Shown here in pieces: positions 7,210 through 38,405 of a stretch of DNA of 64,000 bases. The stretch's first letter is position 1; each line of letters begins with the position of its first letter. This DNA comes from Motiliproteus sp. GTDB lineage: Bacteria; Pseudomonadota; Gammaproteobacteria; Pseudomonadales; Balneatricaceae. Location of the stretch: contig JAPHRD010000037.1 of the NCBI GenBank assembly GCA_026196225.1, positions 6,855 to 70,854 of the forward strand, read 5' to 3'. The position numbers were made by a program, and so were the translations under genes. The notes beneath the pieces were generated by a model. The model was not told where the DNA came from. It ran no database searches and was given only the letters and a program-made list of their open reading frames with translations.

Positions 7210-8943
7210 ATGGAGCCCCTCATCAATGGACACAACATGCTGATCAAACGAACGCCTTTAATCCTGTCAGTGATTGTCCTGCTACCGGTGACAATCCTGG
7301 CTTGGTTCGCAATTCAGCATCAGAGCAACCAACAACTGCTACTGCAACACCAATTCAGTAATTTGATCGAACTCCGATTGCAGAGTATCGATCGACAGTT
7401 GCAGGAACACTTCCAAGCCCTGCAGCGCCGCCTTCTCCCCGATGCCCAACAACTTCAGCAACAAAACCCCAGCTATCCAGCAGAAGCACTGAGAAAGTAC
7501 ACCAAAAGCTCCCCCTGGCTTAGCCAGATATTTGTCTTAGGTGCCGATGCTGAACGCATATTCCCACCCCAAGCTAAACCTTTGAATAAGCAGGAGCAGG
7601 CATTTGTCAGAGACAGTGGCACGCTGCTCTCTTCTCCTCAGCTGTTTACCCAACAGCGCCCCGAACTTGAAGCTGGATCGCCGATAGAACCTCAGCTTAG
7701 TCAACGAGATTCCAATTCCTCCAGCCGGCTAAAACTCTACAGCGCCCCCCTACCGCAGGCGAGCAACAGCGAAGCAGACTTAGCCCTGGCCACCGAAACA
7801 GGCCCCCATGGCTGGCTGGCCTGGTATGCCGATACCGGATTGCAGCACATCTTCTGGTGGCAGGATCCCGAGGGTCAGATTCTAGGCTTTGTTCTCAATG
7901 GTGCCCGGCTACTGTCGGACCTGTTAAACAGGCTACCGGAAGGGGATGCCAATGATCTGGCCAAGGCCGAGATTCGACTGATCAACAATCGTGATGAGGT
8001 GATCTACAGTTGGGGCCAGTATCAGCCAGCAGAGCAAGCAAGTCCGTTAAAAATCCGGGCCCTCAGCCACCCCATCGGTAGCTGGCGACTGGCCTACTTT
8101 TCCCCCCGCCTGCAAACGACTGGAACCGATTGGCTGGGCGTGGCCAGTTGGTTGCTACTGCTGACCGCCGGACTCGGGACTTTGGCCTTCCTGCTATACC
8201 GGGCACATATCCGAGAGTTACGGTTAGCGGAGCAACGGGTAAATTTCGTCAACCAAGTATCCCACGAGTTAAAGACCCCGTTAACCAATGTTCGCCTCTA
8301 CGCAGAGATGTTGGAACAGGAGTTACCGGAACCCGAAGAGGAGCCTCTGGTTCGTCGATATTTGAGTGTAATTACCAGCGAAAGCCAGCGTTTATCCCGA
8401 CTTATTGACAACGTTTTAAGCTTTTCCCGACTTCGCCGCGACGCCCTCAAGGTCACGCTACAATCAGGGCAGATAGACCATTGCATCGATCAGGTGATTG
8501 AAAACTTTGCCCCGGCCCTGCGGGACCGTGAACTACAGGTCAGTTTCCAGGCAGAAGCTGCCGATACCCGCCTGTTCGATTGCCAGGCCCTGGAACAGAT
8601 TCTTAATAATCTGATCAGCAACAGCGAGAAGTACGCCGCGTCGGGCAAAAAGATCGACATCCACAGCTGGCAGGATGCCGCCAACAGCTATATCCGCATC
8701 CGCGACTATGGCCCCGGCATCCAGCCAGAACAATCTGAAAAGATCTTCAGCCCCTTCTATCGCATCAGCAATAAACTTACCGATGGTGTCAGCGGTACCG
8801 GTATCGGACTGGGGCTGGCACGGGATCTTGCCCGCGCCCACGGCGGTGATCTGGTGCTGGAAAAACGATCTGAGAAAGAACCTGGAGCCAGCTTCGTACT
8901 CCAGATTGCAACACCAGCAAGCGATGACAATCAGGATCAATAA
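7210..8943 (+). CDS. sensor histidine kinase (large periplasmic domain)
   Basis: 577 aa. N-terminal TM, about 270-aa periplasmic region, second TM, H-box VSHELKTPLTNV, N box NLISNSEKY, G2 box GTGIGLGLA. The start could instead be the ATG at 7237. Confidence 0.85.
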   Translation: MEPLINGHNMLIKRTPLILSVIVLLPVTILAWFAIQHQSNQQLLLQHQFSNLIELRLQSIDRQLQEHFQALQRRLLPDAQQLQQQNPSYPAEALRKYTKSSPWLSQIFVLGADAERIFPPQAKPLNKQEQAFVRDSGTLLSSPQLFTQQRPELEAGSPIEPQLSQRDSNSSSRLKLYSAPLPQASNSEADLALATETGPHGWLAWYADTGLQHIFWWQDPEGQILGFVLNGARLLSDLLNRLPEGDANDLAKAEIRLINNRDEVIYSWGQYQPAEQASPLKIRALSHPIGSWRLAYFSPRLQTTGTDWLGVASWLLLLTAGLGTLAFLLYRAHIRELRLAEQRVNFVNQVSHELKTPLTNVRLYAEMLEQELPEPEEEPLVRRYLSVITSESQRLSRLIDNVLSFSRLRRDALKVTLQSGQIDHCIDQVIENFAPALRDRELQVSFQAEAADTRLFDCQALEQILNNLISNSEKYAASGKKIDIHSWQDAANSYIRIRDYGPGIQPEQSEKIFSPFYRISNKLTDGVSGTGIGLGLARDLARAHGGDLVLEKRSEKEPGASFVLQIATPASDDNQDQ

Positions 8944-33300: not shown

Positions 33301-33451
33301 CGAAAGTCCTGGAAAATGATAGATGTAGGATCGGCTACAACCACCAATTCTTTAGCCAAACCCGTCTGGTTTTTGGCATATTTCTTAGCCTTAGATAGCC
33401 ATTCTGGAGTAAAATTCCTGTTTGACCCACCCCTCCTTGGAGTACCGCTCG

Positions 33452-33661
33452 ATGGGACGCTATCGCCCTCCTCAACCACCCAAATCGAATTACATCACCA
33501 GCAACGGCGAAAAGACTCTTCGCGAAGAACTCAAGTATCTGTGGAAGGTAAAGCGACCGGAGGTTACCCAAGCTGTGCAGGAAGCTGCCGCCCAGGGAGA
33601 CCGCTCAGAGAACGCCGAATGGTGTAAGAAACCCCTCAAAGCATACTATTTCACGCGCTAG
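33452..33661 (+). pseudogene. greB: greB, 5' fragment only (transcript cleavage factor GreB truncated after about 57 codons)
   Basis: MGRYRPPQPPKSNYITSNGEKTLREELKYLWKVKRPEVTQAVQEAAAQGDRSENAE matches the Gre N-terminal coiled-coil through the GDRSENA motif. It then diverges (WCKKPLKAYYFTR*) exactly where AT-rich DNA begins. No Gre C-terminal domain was found in any frame. Confidence 0.8.
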
Positions 33662-33715
33662 CACTAATAATAAAGCCATACACAATAGTACGAATACTAT
33701 TTACCTGTACTATTT
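33644..33715. repeat. cluster of TACTATT(T) motifs at the island's left junction
   Basis: Direct copies at 33644-33651, 33695-33702 and 33708-33715. An inverted 7-mer AATAGTA at 33684-33690 forms AATAGTA-cgaa-TACTATT. Confidence 0.7.
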
Positions 33716-33769
33716 AAAACTCTCTCACTACAACCATAGACCCTGTTCTACGCACCACACCCGCTTTAT

Positions 33770-34426
33770 TTATGTCCGTATCAAGCGAAGATGACTAATC
33801 TCATTACTGAAAGAAAACAACGTGTGCGGCTTGATATCTTCTGTCACCTCGCTATCAGGAATGAGCCTAGTCATGATAGGAATAGTCCCATAAGGGTACC
33901 CATATTCATAATCCTCAGGATTGAGGTCAATTCTCCTAAGTACATAATCAACAACTATATGATAACTAACTTCCCGGTGGTCTAGCTTCTTTCTTTTTAC
34001 CTTATTTTTCATCAACACCATTTTCTCATGGAAAGAACCATCAACATAACTAAAAAAAGCTCTAACGAAATCCTCTGATATATCAATAACCGAATCCAGG
34101 TCATAAACGGACCTCATTATAGTCAGCATGTCTTTTTTCATGACACAAGCACCAACAGGAAAAAGCAATCCAACCAACTCTTTCCGCGATTCTGGCAAAA
34201 CGCTTTCCTCTAGAAAAGATTTTGAAACATATCCCCAGTCTAAATAATCAGAACCAATTTTAGGTATAGGATCAGGCCTGCAACGCTCTCTTGCATCATA
34301 TATTTGCATAGCAGCATCTAACGGCAAATAGCGAGCCAACAAAGCCCCAAAGCTTATATCGCAATACTTTGATAAAAACATAGAAAAACCAATAAAAATA
34401 AACACGAAAACTATAAATCCCTGCAA
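33770..34426 (-). CDS. hypothetical N-terminally membrane-anchored protein (orphan)
   Basis: 218 aa. One N-terminal hydrophobic helix (FIVFVFIFIGFSMFL). AT-rich. Overlaps the upstream gene by 16 nt. No motif recognised. Confidence 0.6.
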   Translation of the reverse strand: MQGFIVFVFIFIGFSMFLSKYCDISFGALLARYLPLDAAMQIYDARERCRPDPIPKIGSDYLDWGYVSKSFLEESVLPESRKELVGLLFPVGACVMKKDMLTIMRSVYDLDSVIDISEDFVRAFFSYVDGSFHEKMVLMKNKVKRKKLDHREVSYHIVVDYVLRRIDLNPEDYEYGYPYGTIPIMTRLIPDSEVTEDIKPHTLFSFSNEISHLRLIRT

Positions 34427-35676
34427 TCGCTCAAAATCCTATCCGCATCATCAGATATATTCACTTTATCCAACCACGAAGCCACAATCTCCCTCACAGA
34501 AAGCCTATTCCAGTTAAAATGCTGGTTAAGATAAAGATCAGAAAAAACAGACTCAAATGGAGATGATATTATTTCCGGAGGCAAACTCCATGTCTTAACA
34601 AGCTCATAATCTCTACTCTCCATCCTTTCTATATAATTTCCAACAAAACTTGTAAAATAGTGCCTAGCAACATAATCAGAACAACCTTCCTTCCTGATAT
34701 GAGCCACGACATCTTTAGCTTTTATATTAAAAGTAAAATAAAGATTAACCGGGGAGTAGTTTTCAGCCAGATGGTTCAACAGCGAACCCAAAGCCCTTGA
34801 GTTATCAATCGGCAATCGGTATTCTCGACTTATTGCATCGACAAGCTTATACAATTTAAAGATCTGCACGTCCTTAAACATTTTCTTGATACGGCGGACA
34901 TCATTAGATGTTAAAACAAAAGTGGAAAGACGCTGATAAAGCAGGCCAACCAAATCAATCGTATCAACACCATCTATTGAAGGCTTATTTAGGTAAACAC
35001 CTGCACATACCACTTCCTTATTTTTATAATATGCATTTATTCCAGAACGACCATCGTATGACAACTTTGATACCGATCCATAAAGCAACTCACTTGCCAG
35101 CTCCACTTCCTTTGGAATTTCTGGCAGATAAACAAACACCCCCTTGTTCACAAGAGACCAAAATAAATTTTGATCAACCACTTCACAGCCTGTGATAAAA
35201 ATTTCACTGGGCGATCCAGATAGAAAAACAAAATCCTTATCTAACGAAACCGACATCGACAGCAAAGCCAATATCTCATCAAACGCGAGATCAGAAATAT
35301 AATTTACTTTTTCAAAAGCGAGATTTTTATACTCACTAACAACTTTTATGGCATCATGTATAGATCGCTGCTTAATTAACTCTATACATTCATCGCAAAA
35401 AACTTCTTCGACAGTTTTGCAACGCCTCAAATACTCAGAACGAGTACTAACCGGCATCTTAATGCCGCATTCACGGCAGAAAAAATTATCGCCACAAGGC
35501 AAGAACAAAGTTTTCTTAGCAATCGCCCCGACTTTACGAATTTTTTCATCTTTATATTTTTTATCGATCACCGCCTGGGCAAAAAGAAAACCTGTATCCG
35601 CTTTATCAGAAAGCAACCAATACTCGTTGACTGCGCATATTTCAAAACTTGAAAGCCCCTCTGGATAACAAATCAT
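34411..35676 (-). CDS. hypothetical protein with N-terminal zinc-ribbon-like Cys cluster (orphan)
   Basis: 421 aa. GGAGG 8 nt upstream of the ATG. C61, C67xxC70, C86, C94xxC97. No catalytic motif recognised in the rest. Confidence 0.65.
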   Translation of the reverse strand: MICYPEGLSSFEICAVNEYWLLSDKADTGFLFAQAVIDKKYKDEKIRKVGAIAKKTLFLPCGDNFFCRECGIKMPVSTRSEYLRRCKTVEEVFCDECIELIKQRSIHDAIKVVSEYKNLAFEKVNYISDLAFDEILALLSMSVSLDKDFVFLSGSPSEIFITGCEVVDQNLFWSLVNKGVFVYLPEIPKEVELASELLYGSVSKLSYDGRSGINAYYKNKEVVCAGVYLNKPSIDGVDTIDLVGLLYQRLSTFVLTSNDVRRIKKMFKDVQIFKLYKLVDAISREYRLPIDNSRALGSLLNHLAENYSPVNLYFTFNIKAKDVVAHIRKEGCSDYVARHYFTSFVGNYIERMESRDYELVKTWSLPPEIISSPFESVFSDLYLNQHFNWNRLSVREIVASWLDKVNISDDADRILSDCRDL

Positions 35677-35907
35677 TTTTCAGGCCTCCAACCATACACT
35701 ACATGCGGACCAGCCCCAGCGATTATAAATGGACCTACAATTCTTCAGATTAATAGACATGGGGACCTCCTACCCGGTTACTGCTCTACCTCGTACATAC
35801 AGGCACAACAGAATCTCGAACAATTCATTCGTGAAAGTGAACGCTTGACGGAACGGAATCAGGGATGGGAGAATCAAGTCACCACAACTGAAGGCCTCGC
35901 CTTCCCT

Positions 35908-35943
35908 AAAAACCGGAATCAAGCCATTGGTTTCGGTTTTTTT
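35908..35943. terminator. bidirectional rho-independent terminator
   Basis: AAAAACCGGAATCAA-GCCA-TTGGTTTCGGTTTTTTT, a stem of about 15 bp (with G-U pairs) flanked by A5/T7. Lies 10 nt after the Ner-like gene stop. Confidence 0.75.
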
Positions 35944-35952
35944 GTGCCTATG

Positions 35953-36195
35953 TCATTTCAGACCTCCCCCTTCCAAATGCTGTGATAACTTTTCATAGTT
36001 TGATGAGACTTCGTCTTTGAGGCCCAACGCAATGGCAATCTGATAGCTTTCGCCTCTTACCGGACTCCTCTTTCCAGATAGCACCTGATATACCAAAGAC
36101 TGAGAGAAGCCTTTACGCCTAGCCCACTCGGCGACGCTAACATTATGATTTTTAAAAATTTTCTTTACTTCCTCATGAGTGCGAGCCATATACAT
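35953..36195 (-). CDS. small HTH DNA-binding protein, Ner/Nlp (Cro-type)-like
   Basis: 80 aa. VSVAEWARRKGFSQSLVYQVLSGKRSPVRGESYQIAIALGL resembles the Ner/Nlp/YdaS pattern. Divergent from the XRE gene. Confidence 0.55.
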   Translation of the reverse strand: MYMARTHEEVKKIFKNHNVSVAEWARRKGFSQSLVYQVLSGKRSPVRGESYQIAIALGLKDEVSSNYEKLSQHLEGGGLK

Positions 36196-36275: not shown

Positions 36276-36647
36276 ATGAATCACAGAGAATCTATCGGCA
36301 AACGGCTAGCAGAAGAGCGCAAGCGCCTTAGCCTGACACAGGCTGAGCTTGCCAAGGCCTGCGGCATAACATCCACCACGCAGTTCCTGTACGAGAGGGG
36401 TGACAGGGTTCCAAACGCAGAATACCTGCGCTTAATTATGGAGCTAGGGGTGCGTGTTTTTTATGTACTCGACGGATCAGTAGATGACTTGTCAATCCCG
36501 CCACAAGAGCTTCGACGACTTTACGTACTGTGTGATCACAGATGTCGTGACAGCGCAGGAAGGCTTTCAGACTTAGAGACACGAGCAGATACTTTCGAGA
36601 AACTTGTTCAAGAATATTTAAGATCTACCCCATTGGAGGCTCAGTAA
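36276..36647 (+). CDS. XRE-family HTH transcriptional regulator (CI-type)
   Basis: 123 aa. IGKRLAEERKRLSLTQAELAKACGITSTTQFLYERGDRVPNAEYL. Confidence 0.8.
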   Translation: MNHRESIGKRLAEERKRLSLTQAELAKACGITSTTQFLYERGDRVPNAEYLRLIMELGVRVFYVLDGSVDDLSIPPQELRRLYVLCDHRCRDSAGRLSDLETRADTFEKLVQEYLRSTPLEAQ

Positions 36648-37219
36648 TGGAACGCAGCAATTTTGTTAGAGGACTTGTCTATTTTGGCCGCATTCATCAA
36701 GTGCTGTTATATCTGTGGCGCTATCGCAGACTGGAACATTCAATAGAAATCCATAAAGCGCCAGACTCAGCGATAGAAGAAAACTACATCAAATTTCGAA
36801 CTGCTAAGGAACGCATACTTTTCGGCCAATCGTTCAATGAGCTCCAGAGGCGAACCTATGACCGCCTTACTTTTCATGTCTCTGAAAGCACTATTCAACG
36901 TTTACTACTTGGTAGATATTTGACAGAAAGCGGCCGGATACAGCGCAACAAAATTTTAGACAATTGCCTCATGGGCCTTGTGTGCTGCACTCTGATCATA
37001 ACCGCTCTATGGCTAATCGGTGTTAGTGGGGAAATCGCTCTGCTCAACACCGTTTCACTAGCGGTAAAAGCCCAGGTGATCGTAACTCTGATCGCCTTAA
37101 TCTCCATTCCCTCTATCTATTTGGCTTACATTGCTATCGAACCGATAATTGGTTACCGCGAATACCAGCGATCAAGGGCTTACATCGGCGATGATGAATC
37201 GGCTAATTTGCAAGCATAA
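36647..37219 (+). CDS. hypothetical 2-TM membrane protein translationally coupled to the XRE gene
   Basis: 190 aa. TAATG stop/start overlap. Two C-terminal TM helices (LMGLVCCTLIITALWLIGV, VIVTLIALISIPSIYLAYIAI). Confidence 0.6.
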   Translation: MERSNFVRGLVYFGRIHQVLLYLWRYRRLEHSIEIHKAPDSAIEENYIKFRTAKERILFGQSFNELQRRTYDRLTFHVSESTIQRLLLGRYLTESGRIQRNKILDNCLMGLVCCTLIITALWLIGVSGEIALLNTVSLAVKAQVIVTLIALISIPSIYLAYIAIEPIIGYREYQRSRAYIGDDESANLQA

Positions 37220-37361: not shown

Positions 37362-37541
37362 ATGCCGAGCATGAAAATTCCCGCGCACTGGACACCAAGC
37401 GAAGCCCTGGCCGTTTTCGAGTTTATTGACGAAATTCGAGACCAGATTTGGAATGCCTACGGACCAGAGATACAAGCACAACTGCAAGAGGATCAGGCCT
37501 CTTTACGACTACAGTGCAGCGATGAGGACCTAGATTTCTAA
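37362..37541 (+). CDS. small hypothetical protein (59 aa, below the track cutoff)
   Basis: Hand-translated: MPSMKIPAHWTPSEALAVFEFIDEIRDQIWNAYGPEIQAQLQEDQASLRLQCSDEDLDF. AAGGAGGA SD ends 4 nt before the ATG. Confidence 0.5.
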   Translation: MPSMKIPAHWTPSEALAVFEFIDEIRDQIWNAYGPEIQAQLQEDQASLRLQCSDEDLDF

Positions 37542-37551
37542 ATCATCCAAA

Positions 37552-37561
37552 GGGGGGGGGA
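37552..37561. repeat. G10 homopolymer
   Basis: Ten consecutive G, 10 nt after the 59-aa ORF stop. Followed by the hairpin GAGAGGGCG-AGATTC-CGCGCTCTC (37561-37584). Confidence 0.95.
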
Positions 37562-37828: not shown

Positions 37829-38405
37829 TCAAACTATCGATGAATCCTTGCCCTCGATTCGGTACTGACTCGGGGTTGCTCCTGTCAGTTTTTTGAAAGT
37901 ACGAATAAAGAAGCTTTGATTTTCGTATCCGACAGAATTAGAAACCGCACCAACACTCAACGTGGTGGATAGCAATAGTCGCTTAGCTTTCTCTATCCTG
38001 ACCGATTGAATGTACTGAGTGAATGAAAGCCCAGTCGTCTTTTTAAGACGCCTCTTAAGACTGGAATCGCTTAGGTTAACCATCGTCATTGCGCCTTCGA
38101 GACTTAGCCCTTCAGCATGATGTTCCTCAATCCAGTCTTGTAGCTGTGCGATCTTCATATCAGAGTAATTGGCACAATTGCGGATACTTGTGGTGGCTAT
38201 GCAGCCCACAGTTTAATGCCAGAAAACACGTCGATACTGACTGTTGAATATAAAATAAATCTGATAGCACCAGGTAACGGCGACCGCTTAATGGCCGAGC
38301 GAAGGTAATAAATCCTGGACGTACCCTCATGATCAGTAGCACTGAAATATTTGTTGTAAAAGATGGCGAAGAGAAGCTATGTGCTACATCACTAATGACG
38401 CTCAT
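37829..38405 (-). pseudogene. decayed AraC-family regulator (HTH half intact, N-terminal half frameshifted or deleted)
   Basis: 37829-38158 encodes a complete AraC double HTH (LSLEGAMTMVNLSDSSLKRRLKKTTGLSFTQYIQSVRIEKAKRLL...GYENQSFFIRTFKKLTGATPSQYR). The upstream 81-aa ORF is in another frame and has only faint GlxA-like remnants (LSGRR, DLFYI). Confidence 0.5.

Follow-up and report, generated by a model that had tools for sequence, protein, structure and literature searches.

Gamma-Mobile-Trio (GMT) islands, recently described as replicative 'armouries' that spread defence and attack genes by a largely obscure mechanism, are the closest described relatives of the locus considered here. According to Mahata et al. 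(bioRxiv 10.1101/2023.03.28.534373), the gmtY, gmtZ and gmtX genes (NCBIfam NF040693, NF047926 and NF040692, respectively) lie at the 5′ border of the island, insertion is site-specific, the circular intermediate is without flanking repeats, and transfer is replicative and needs second-strand synthesis. The cargo is rich in anti-phage systems, and an island inserted within a gene carries a homologue of the gene it disrupts. In Dataset S2 of that study, greB recurs many times among the intragenic insertion sites; a P. aeruginosa entry reads ...CTTCTTGCCGTAGATGTATTCGGCGTTTTCCGAGCG.... Here we analyse a 64,000-nucleotide (nt) stretch of Motiliproteus sp. DNA (contig JAPHRD010000037.1, positions 6,855–70,854; 'the window'), and in it a minus-strand gene of 421 amino acids (aa; 34411–35676, ATG start) that is followed by a 218-aa open reading frame (ORF; 33770–34426, minus strand, TTG start). 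A first-pass annotation, made from the letters alone, had proposed both ORFs, which we confirm, and had read them as a candidate two-gene conflict or defence module in an island that disrupts greB. By its sequence, that island is a decayed GMT island, and its target, greB, is a documented GMT insertion site.

The island type, the greB target and the habit of carrying defence genes are thus already known. What is new is a conserved gene family at the 3′ terminus of one GMT lineage, whose predicted fold is confident and unmatched; the conserved repeat architecture of that island end; and the recognition of a database 'plasmid' as an excised island circle. Neither the 3′-end gene family nor the terminal ATAGTA repeats are mentioned in the description of GMT islands (10.1101/2023.03.28.534373).

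GInt and SE elements (Bardaji et al. 2017, PMC5385486; Idola et al. 2023, PMC10214605) are islands mobilised by several tyrosine recombinases. They resemble the islands described below in forming circular intermediates and in carrying variable cargo, with a recombinase operon at one end and a short AT-rich stretch at the other. Our first reading of the island was as a GInt, and it was replaced once NCBIfam named the trio GMT. Among the related loci (numbered L001, L002 and so on), L004–L006 and L011 carry a four-gene module (450/508/804/151 aa) that is GInt-like in general layout; these modules are not homologous to GmtYZX by BLAST, and the window has no such genes. BrxR/CapW-type winged helix-turn-helix regulators and the GAPS candidates of GMT islands provide a different likeness, that of a stand-alone gene with DNA-binding domains recurring beside many defence systems. 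The 421-aa protein differs from them in having neither a WYL or known sensor domain nor any sequence or fold match, and in lying at the island end and pointing outward rather than upstream of an operon. GAPS1–13, compared here by description only, all come from Vibrio, where no member of the 421-aa family was found.

Junction promoters arise in IS911- and IS30-type circles, and in Tn916 transcription reads through into the transfer genes after excision. In these elements, as possibly in the islands described here, it takes circularisation to bring an outward-facing gene or promoter at one end next to the genes for recombination or transfer; for the present family, the arrangement is read solely from gene order and an absent terminator.

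Identification of a GMT island remnant in greB

The region is identifiable from its sequence as the 3′-terminal (right-hand) remnant of a decayed GMT island in greB. What remains of the host gene is a plus-strand 5′ fragment whose reading frame, including an island-derived tail, covers 33422–33661. GreB homology is confined to 33485–33622, residues ∼3–48 (tblastn with intact GreB), and the fragment matches positions 1–45 of the 71 in the Pfam GreA_GreB_N profile (E 5.7e-16); the frame reads on into island DNA, gains ...CKKPLKAYYFTR and then stops. The tblastn search found no further piece of greB, whether the 3′ part or a second copy, in the whole 64 kb. The disruption of greB by a horizontally acquired island, claimed in the first-pass annotation, is supported. 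The junction, ...GGGGTTTCTTACACCATTCGGCGTTCTCTGAGCGG, lies in the same greB stretch as the P. aeruginosa example of Dataset S2.

The breakpoint at about codon 48 is shared by the window and seven other host backgrounds (L001, L003, L009, L010, L012, L013 and L014), in which tblastn places a greB 5′ fragment (residues ∼3–47) just past the relative of the 421-aa gene and convergent to it. It is probably shared by L007 as well, where the contig ends after ∼28 nt of the fragment, visible in the DNA alignment only. The island end abuts a greB 5′ fragment in nine loci, and the host flanks differ among the loci that bear one.

The genes that identify the island type are found in the relatives. In L015, a metagenomic contig, the family gene is followed by the repeats and by an inverted core, TAGGGGTTACTTTATCATTAGAACCCCA. 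Three genes of 460, 910 and 201 aa come next, and an intact greB after them; the junction core is GGGGTT/AACCCC inverted, followed by gmtY. L002 contains the same four genes, and NCBIfam models name the trio of these two loci GmtY (E 4e-155), GmtZ (E 3e-239) and GmtX (E 9e-66). Four related islands have the trio (L002, L015, L018 and L024), and gmtX is followed by an intact greB in L002, L015, L018 and L023. Islands with the 421-aa family accordingly resemble described GMT islands in the gmtY-gmtZ-gmtX order at the 5′ border, in their insertion into greB, the Dataset S2 target, in carrying a greB of their own, in defence-rich cargo and in forming an exact end-to-end circle.

The window copy differs from such islands in having no trio, no island-borne greB and no other junction. 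A tblastn search with the L015 trio found no gmt gene in the whole 64 kb, and searches for repeats, the core motif and gmt and gin proteins (tblastn) did not find the other island end in the window. Because trio, island greB and the 3′ part of greB are all missing, the copy is a remnant only and immobile; the missing island-borne greB fits a loss of the island's 5′ part. We propose that the island entered greB by site-specific insertion at about codon 48 and that only its right-hand tip survives. An intact island would read gmtY-gmtZ-gmtX-greB copy-variable cargo-421-family gene-(optional small gene)-ATAGTA repeats-GGGGTTyTT end, and the window keeps only its last part; recombinase trio and replacement greB are gone, as is the 3′ half of host greB. 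The AT-richness noted in the first pass is borne out: the fraction of G+C is 0.366–0.380 across 34000–35499, ∼0.50 to the left, ∼0.57 to the right and 0.55–0.64 beyond 39.5 kb. This low G+C content, under that of the flanks, extends rightward to ∼39.4 kb.

Architecture of the island end

The stretch of ∼90 bp between the family gene and the greB fragment (33626–33716, minus strand, in the window) is a conserved 3′ terminal region of the GMT island with an end architecture shared among the loci (alignment A3). It consists of AATAGTAy, an inverted pair ATAGTAT..ATACTATT, an AT-rich stretch, AATAGTAT, 6 nt and AGrGGTTyTT. The window end has GAGGGGTTTCTT at 33626–33637 and four ATAGTA-type repeats, three as TACTATT (33644, 33695 and 33708) and one as AATAGTA (33684). 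The 24- and 40-nt spacings are kept in six loci besides the window (L001, L003, L007, L008, L012 and L014), and L009, L010, L013, L015 and L018 have a similar layout. At the island 5′ end, a single inverted copy of the ATAGTA motif occurs in L015 and L018. The repeats are therefore most simply, and probably, the terminal inverted repeats of the island and sites for the Gmt recombinase. As binding sites for the 421-aa protein, which we also considered, they are unlikely, given this inverted copy at the 5′ end.

The 7 nt that follow the GGTTyTT arm vary between the otherwise near-identical ends of L008 and L014, and between the integrated and circular Halomonas forms described below. In the window, the corresponding 33619–33625 (no strand) is the probable crossover (overlap) region between host greB and island end. 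As a practical matter for annotation, the 3′ border of a greB-type GMT island, or of a remnant of one, can be recognised by the combination of a 421-family gene, ATAGTA repeats and GGGGTTyTT.

Not all of these islands lie in greB. Those at L008 (9255–9900) and at the L019/L021 junction end in ...GGTTCTTTGGTGTA|GCC... and adjoin iteron-like direct repeats of plasmid-type replication regions; different 7-nt stretches follow GGTTCTT at different targets. Since the family proteins of L008 and L014 share 94% identity and the L014 island lies in greB, one island type uses at least two targets.

A protein family at the island 3′ end

The 421-aa protein belongs to a small, uncharacterised family that occupies the same island tip in numerous marine bacteria. 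Its relatives fall into 18 other clusters with 35–43% identity, from Pontibacterium, Methylophaga, Marinobacteraceae, one Chromatiaceae metagenome-assembled genome and marine metagenomes, and a further full-length homologue with 27% identity is encoded on two Halomonas plasmids. The word-indexed protein search that returned the 19 clusters missed this Halomonas homologue, and the family is thus larger than counted; about 20 relatives is a lower bound. The word 'orphan', applied in the first pass to both ORFs, is therefore apt for the 218-aa ORF and not for the 421-aa protein. Relatives are absent from IMG/VR and from GenBank phages.

Alignment of 17 members highlights a nearly invariant N-terminus, MICYP, a CxxC-x23-CxxC motif, and a strongly conserved C-terminal half that includes LLNHLAENYPP. 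All six cysteines proposed earlier as zinc-ribbon-like (C61, C67xxC70, C86 and C94xxC97) are present in the 421-aa protein; only C67, C70, C94 and C97 are conserved, being nearly invariant among the aligned members and retained in the Halomonas homologue, and C61 and C86 are not. The ratio of nonsynonymous to synonymous substitution rates (dN/dS) is 0.11–0.34 among relatives, and the family is under purifying selection.

An AlphaFold2 model built on the family alignment is confident (mean predicted local distance difference test score, pLDDT, 87.1; predicted template modelling score 0.72). Its secondary structure suggests that an alpha/beta domain forms the N-terminus. A zinc ribbon and a long helix come next, and then a helix-strand-helix-strand unit resembling a winged helix, which is probable at about residues 125–185. 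A small beta region leads to the C-terminal domain, which is all-alpha. Foldseek returned no match with E below 1 in the PDB or BFVD, a profile search of PDB sequences gave weak zinc-finger noise only, and neither the 421-aa nor the 218-aa protein matched Pfam, PADLOC, PHROGs or NCBIfam, in line with the first-pass remarks that no catalytic signature could be found in the ∼320 aa after the cysteines of the 421-aa protein, and no recognisable motif after the hydrophobic helix of the 218-aa one. Across the 17 members, Pfam and PADLOC produced no shared weak match; those in PADLOC-DB 2.0 are single, weak and confined to the zinc-ribbon region, with nothing common to the set. The terminal position of the gene had raised the idea that the protein is the island's own recombinase. 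This was dropped, as GmtYZX was found and the 421-aa protein has no catalytic signature: it shows no recombinase or transposase match in Pfam or NCBIfam and no fold match, and the invariant family residues include no pair of arginines.

Wherever flanks are visible, the relative of the 421-aa gene lies inside an obvious island. In 13 of 15 distinct loci it is the last or next-to-last gene before the conserved end with its ATAGTA repeats and GGGGTTyTT, and in these 13 its position and orientation are the same whether the cargo is defence or metal resistance. When all ORFs of all loci were clustered against each other, only the 421-aa family was common to all.

The cargo itself is diverse. Type I restriction-modification (R-M) genes come with embedded SMODS/SLATT in L001 and L012, with embedded SIR2-HerA in L008, and with YgjP in L009. 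L007 carries R-M, a reverse transcriptase, BrxR and a patatin-type cyclic-oligonucleotide-based anti-phage signalling system (CBASS); L003 carries DUF1156, UvrD and DUF499; L010 R-M, AAA_15 and PLD; L004–L006 SIR2-HerA and type II CBASS; and L011 Helicase/DUF676, a VPA1262-family protein and QatABCD. The defence setting suggested in the first pass therefore applies to many relatives, which adjoin R-M, CBASS, SIR2-HerA, Qat and DISARM-like genes; a metal-resistance island carries the family too.

Three metagenome contigs (L014, L015 and L017) all start ∼190–215 nt upstream of the family gene. This suggests assembly breaks at the onset of variable cargo, which are expected if a population shares the island end and differs in cargo.

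An apparently excised island circle in Halomonas

The 27%-identical homologue provides the most complete view of an island with this family. On pTHAF12_a of Halomonas THAF12 (169 kb, NZ_CP045400.1; L019/L021/L024), an integrated island reads radC | gmtY-gmtZ-gmtX-greB ... family homologue | plasmid iterons, with the homologue as its last gene. The cargo is not defence; it comprises copper, mercury and cadmium resistance and diguanylate cyclases. Terminal position and orientation are thus kept at 27% identity and with non-defence cargo. The 5′ junction of the island is ...TTTTTTCAT|AAAGAACCCC and the 3′ junction is ...GGTTCTTTGGTGTA|GCCACTGCC.

A second replicon, pTHAF12_b (NZ_CP045401.1; L018/L020), is 47,894 bp long and has no annotated rep gene in a PLSDB gene table that is incomplete. 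It contains ...GGTTCTTTGGTGTA|AAAGAACCCC..., in which the 3′ end of the pTHAF12_a island is joined to its 5′ end, and so matches an exact end-to-end circle of that island. From this junction, pTHAF12_b appears to be an excised circular GMT island and not a true plasmid. Some database 'plasmids' may accordingly be excised island circles. The circular form, without flanking target sequence, is seen in relatives (pTHAF12_b, and similarly the L015 junction) and not for the window copy. In both joined forms the family gene lies directly upstream of gmtYZX in the same orientation. Neither junction has a terminator-like site between the family gene and gmtY, and outward promoter-like matches at the junctions are no commoner than chance.

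The 218-aa ORF

The 218-aa ORF has the features of a strain-specific orphan in a small variable slot and not those of a conserved partner of the 421-aa gene. No homologue was found in 5.8 billion clustered proteins (word-indexed search) or in 1.84 billion representatives (full HMMER search); its own sequence was found in Motiliproteus sp. records only. One 24-residue match (E 4e-4) is regarded as spurious. A single-sequence AlphaFold2 model is unusable (pLDDT 35).

Its start is also uncertain. GTG at 34405 and ATG at 34384 are alternatives to the TTG, and public gene calls give 211, 203 and 218 aa. The 16-nt overlap with the 421-aa gene, on which the first-pass annotation based co-expression, exists with the TTG start and disappears with the GTG at 34405, and a start at the ATG removes most of the 'hydrophobic helix' that had been noted.

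The extra genes that four loci have between the family gene and the repeats are unrelated: the window has the 218-aa ORF, L010 an antitoxin-like gene of Xre/ParS type (136 aa), and L002 and L017 a 353-aa gene. In nine loci the stop codon of the family gene lies within ∼15 nt of the first repeat, and in L001 the stop codon, TAG, is part of the repeat. Since other islands carry unrelated genes or nothing in this slot, the 218-aa ORF is not a conserved partner, and it is without a conserved functional link to the 421-aa gene.

Signals around the genes

Upstream of the 421-aa gene (35677–35952, minus strand), both signals named in the first pass are where they were said to be: GGAGG (35685–35689) lies 8 nt 5′ of the ATG, and TATAAT is found at 35722–35727. 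A consensus promoter scan does not call the promoter proposed from the latter. A hairpin with a T run (35908–35943) had been described as a strong bidirectional terminator that insulates the pair. It is terminator-like on the plus strand (−16.7 kcal/mol, z −3.4), antisense to both genes, and weak on the strand of the genes (−8.4 kcal/mol, z +0.6), which does not support an insulator of that kind. On the plus strand, it would halt antisense transcription through the 218- and 421-aa genes, for example from the promoter of the greB fragment.

A palindrome, TTGCATCA-N7-TGATGCAA, precedes the start of the family gene by ∼60–70 nt in L001 (7923), L008 (7887 and 7947), L012 (9937) and L014 (86 and 146), with two tandem copies in L008 and L014; degenerate forms occur in L004 and L011. 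No further copy exists in those loci, and it is absent 5′ of the window gene. Because the palindrome is specific to the gene and found nowhere else in those loci, it suggests operator control, possibly autoregulation.

Possible roles of the 421-aa protein

We lean, if only slightly, towards explaining the 421-aa gene by its context, as the last conserved gene of a decayed GMT island in greB. The more specific idea that the protein is a sequence-specific DNA-binding protein (predicted zinc ribbon and winged helix) serving the island itself falls somewhat short of an even prospect and is put forward tentatively. The family gene keeps its place as the last conserved gene at the island 3′ end and is transcribed outward; outward transcription places it, in the circular intermediate, directly upstream of gmtYZX and in the same direction. 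The protein might then regulate gmtYZX from across the circle junction or raise the expression of these genes, or alternatively help to maintain or process the circular copy, and it would not be half of a two-gene defence operon. Position and orientation independent of cargo in 13 of the 15 loci, the adjacency to gmtYZX in the circle, the predicted DNA-binding domains and the palindrome together suggest such a backbone role. The fixed 3′-end position, kept even in a metal-resistance island, fits it at least as well as it fits defence. In its strongest form, which we consider rather unlikely, the family would be an unrecognised fourth component of one GMT lineage, a DNA-binding protein of new fold that acts at the circle junction. 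Such a component could couple gmtYZX expression to circularisation, or help to maintain or complete the replicative circle, and would explain the persistence of a 47.9-kb island copy as a 'plasmid' with no annotated rep gene. For GMT islands at large, a far-end gene that is independent of cargo and neighbours the recombinase operon only in the circle would be a testable handle on how transfer is regulated or completed.

Several observations weigh against an island-serving role. All three Gmt proteins are necessary for circle formation, and 14% of GMT islands hold the trio and no other gene (10.1101/2023.03.28.534373), so the 421-aa family cannot be generally required. A P. aeruginosa megaplasmid has gmtYZX-greB with no adjoining family homologue. 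Between L002 and L015, GmtYZX and GreB are 72–82% identical and the family proteins only 41%; the gene therefore does not co-diverge with the recombinase module. In two lineages, L004–L006 and L011, it lies among defence genes in islands that have the GInt-like recombinase set and lack the repeats. The window copy has stayed intact in a remnant that cannot move, and this suggests that its function does not depend on mobility. Being present at the 5′ end also, the ATAGTA repeats are probably recombinase sites and not sites for the 421-aa protein. The winged-helix call comes from the order of helices and strands in the model, together with a CodY match that is very weak (E above 2), and any DNA-binding, regulatory or mobility role of the protein is putative.

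The main alternative, a real possibility to which we nevertheless give a minority weight, is that the 421-aa protein is a stand-alone anti-phage or conflict gene carried as cargo; in plausibility it stands nearly level with the accessory DNA-binding role. Its DNA-binding domains would sense or bind foreign DNA, the all-alpha C-terminal domain would be the effector or signalling part, and the slot nearest the end would be favoured through its physical linkage to a cis-acting end that the island cannot lose. Of the 13 loci with visible cargo, 9 have known defence systems within 8 kb, among them type I R-M, CBASS, SIR2-HerA, QatABCD, DUF1156/DUF499 and a PLD/AAA_15 set, and GMT cargo is known to hide new defence systems. 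The gene stands alone, usually 110–310 nt from the gene upstream, a gap that holds the palindrome in several relatives. It has moved between two unrelated island types, GMT and GInt-like, and the absent co-divergence with GmtYZX, the intact copy in an immobile remnant, and the rare and patchy distribution of the family all agree with cargo status. If this alternative is right, the defence repertoire gains a protein with no detectable relative in the PDB or BFVD. Yet none of the 17 members has a recognisable effector or catalytic motif or, the weak zinc-ribbon hits aside, a PADLOC match. The family shows no sign of diversifying selection at its dN/dS of 0.11–0.34, and it has no homologue in phage records or IMG/VR. 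Moreover, because defence genes turn over quickly, a 3′-end position and orientation kept down to 27% identity, and with metal-resistance cargo, would be unusual for one.

That the 421- and 218-aa genes form a strain-specific two-gene module (toxin-antitoxin, abortive-infection or sensor-effector), as the first-pass annotation proposed, now appears improbable. The two genes are adjacent on the same strand with a gap of a few nt at most, or the 16-nt overlap if the TTG is used, and a simple scan calls no intrinsic terminator between them. By our own estimate, 218 stop-free codons would arise by chance in 37%-GC DNA with a frequency of ∼2e-7, and the ORF is too long to be fortuitous. Set against this, the ORF has no homologue and occurs in none of the loci of the ∼20 relatives; nine of these end within ∼15 nt of the terminal repeats, leaving no room for a partner, and L010, L002 and L017 have unrelated genes in the same slot. 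The start codon, and hence the overlap, is uncertain. Co-occurrence of homologues was the check that the first-pass annotation itself had named, with its failure counting as refutation, and the relatives never carry the 218-aa ORF. Least probable of all, and far from likely, is a replication initiator of the circular island, with the AT-rich ATAGTA repeats as iterons or origin. In layout, a gene for a protein with a probable winged helix beside an AT-rich stretch with three to four short repeats resembles rep plus oriV. GMT islands transfer replicatively, with a requirement for second-strand synthesis, and the assembly has pTHAF12_b as a circle of its own (47.9 kb) on which no rep gene is annotated, although the PLSDB gene table of that plasmid is incomplete. 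We place this explanation low because the 421-aa protein has no Rep-family similarity in sequence or fold (Pfam, PHROGs, PDB or BFVD), and because the repeats are only 7–8 bp long and stand at both ends, with an inverted 5′ copy of the kind that recombinase sites would show. Most GMT islands, in addition, are without a 421-family gene.

Neighbouring genes and further observations

Three further genes to the right of the 421-aa gene are the remnant's cargo. An 80-aa helix-turn-helix protein of the BcepMu gp16 family (35953–36195, minus strand) matches TIGR04111 (E 1.5e-21) and phrog_925 (E 1.5e-18). A divergent pair follows on the plus strand, encoding a 123-aa Xre/DicA-like repressor (36276–36647; HTH_3, E 5.9e-7, with weak matches to the DicA and RstR subfamilies) and a protein of 190 aa that has hydrophobic stretches and matches no family confidently (36647–37219). 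In the all-against-all clustering, the 80-, 123-, 190- and 218-aa proteins of the window formed no cluster with any related locus. Rfam and tRNA scans of the region found nothing. A 59-aa ORF (37362–37541, plus strand) is preceded by a strong ribosome-binding site, AAGGAGG, 6 nt upstream, and has no family match.

Further right, a minus-strand 126-aa ORF of the AraC family (37829–38209) has the C-terminal HTH_18 domain only and is probably truncated. A run of ∼10 G (37551–37561) lies just upstream of the region of this ORF, and the low-GC stretch that contains both separates the remnant from the IclR/ETF-QO genes. The run and the ORF may mark where the rest of the island was deleted.

In L001 (1–7261), L008 (1–7290) and L012 (289–9160), the other defence systems sit between hsdS and hsdR of the Type I R-M locus. 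A gene of ∼200 aa that resembles half of an HsdS lies 5′ of hsdM in the same three loci, and a Bro-N gene lies between the two in L001 and L008. The 1067-aa neighbour of the family gene in L011 (8275–11478) belongs to the VPA1262 family (E 1e-283). This family takes its name from a gene of VPaI-6, a GMT island of V. parahaemolyticus; the L011 protein is encoded in an island with a different recombinase set.

A search by way of plasmid-borne greB returned, among its hits, one chromosome-like fragment without GMT genes, and the P. aeruginosa megaplasmid mentioned above (NZ_CP140112.1; L023). In this megaplasmid, gmtYZX-greB has other end sequences, and the gene upstream of gmtY is a different one: it encodes a DEAD/DEAH helicase, lies 168 nt away (interval 8066–8234) and points in the same direction. 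This helicase gene may be the counterpart, in another GMT lineage, of the 'last gene', with the island ends joined.

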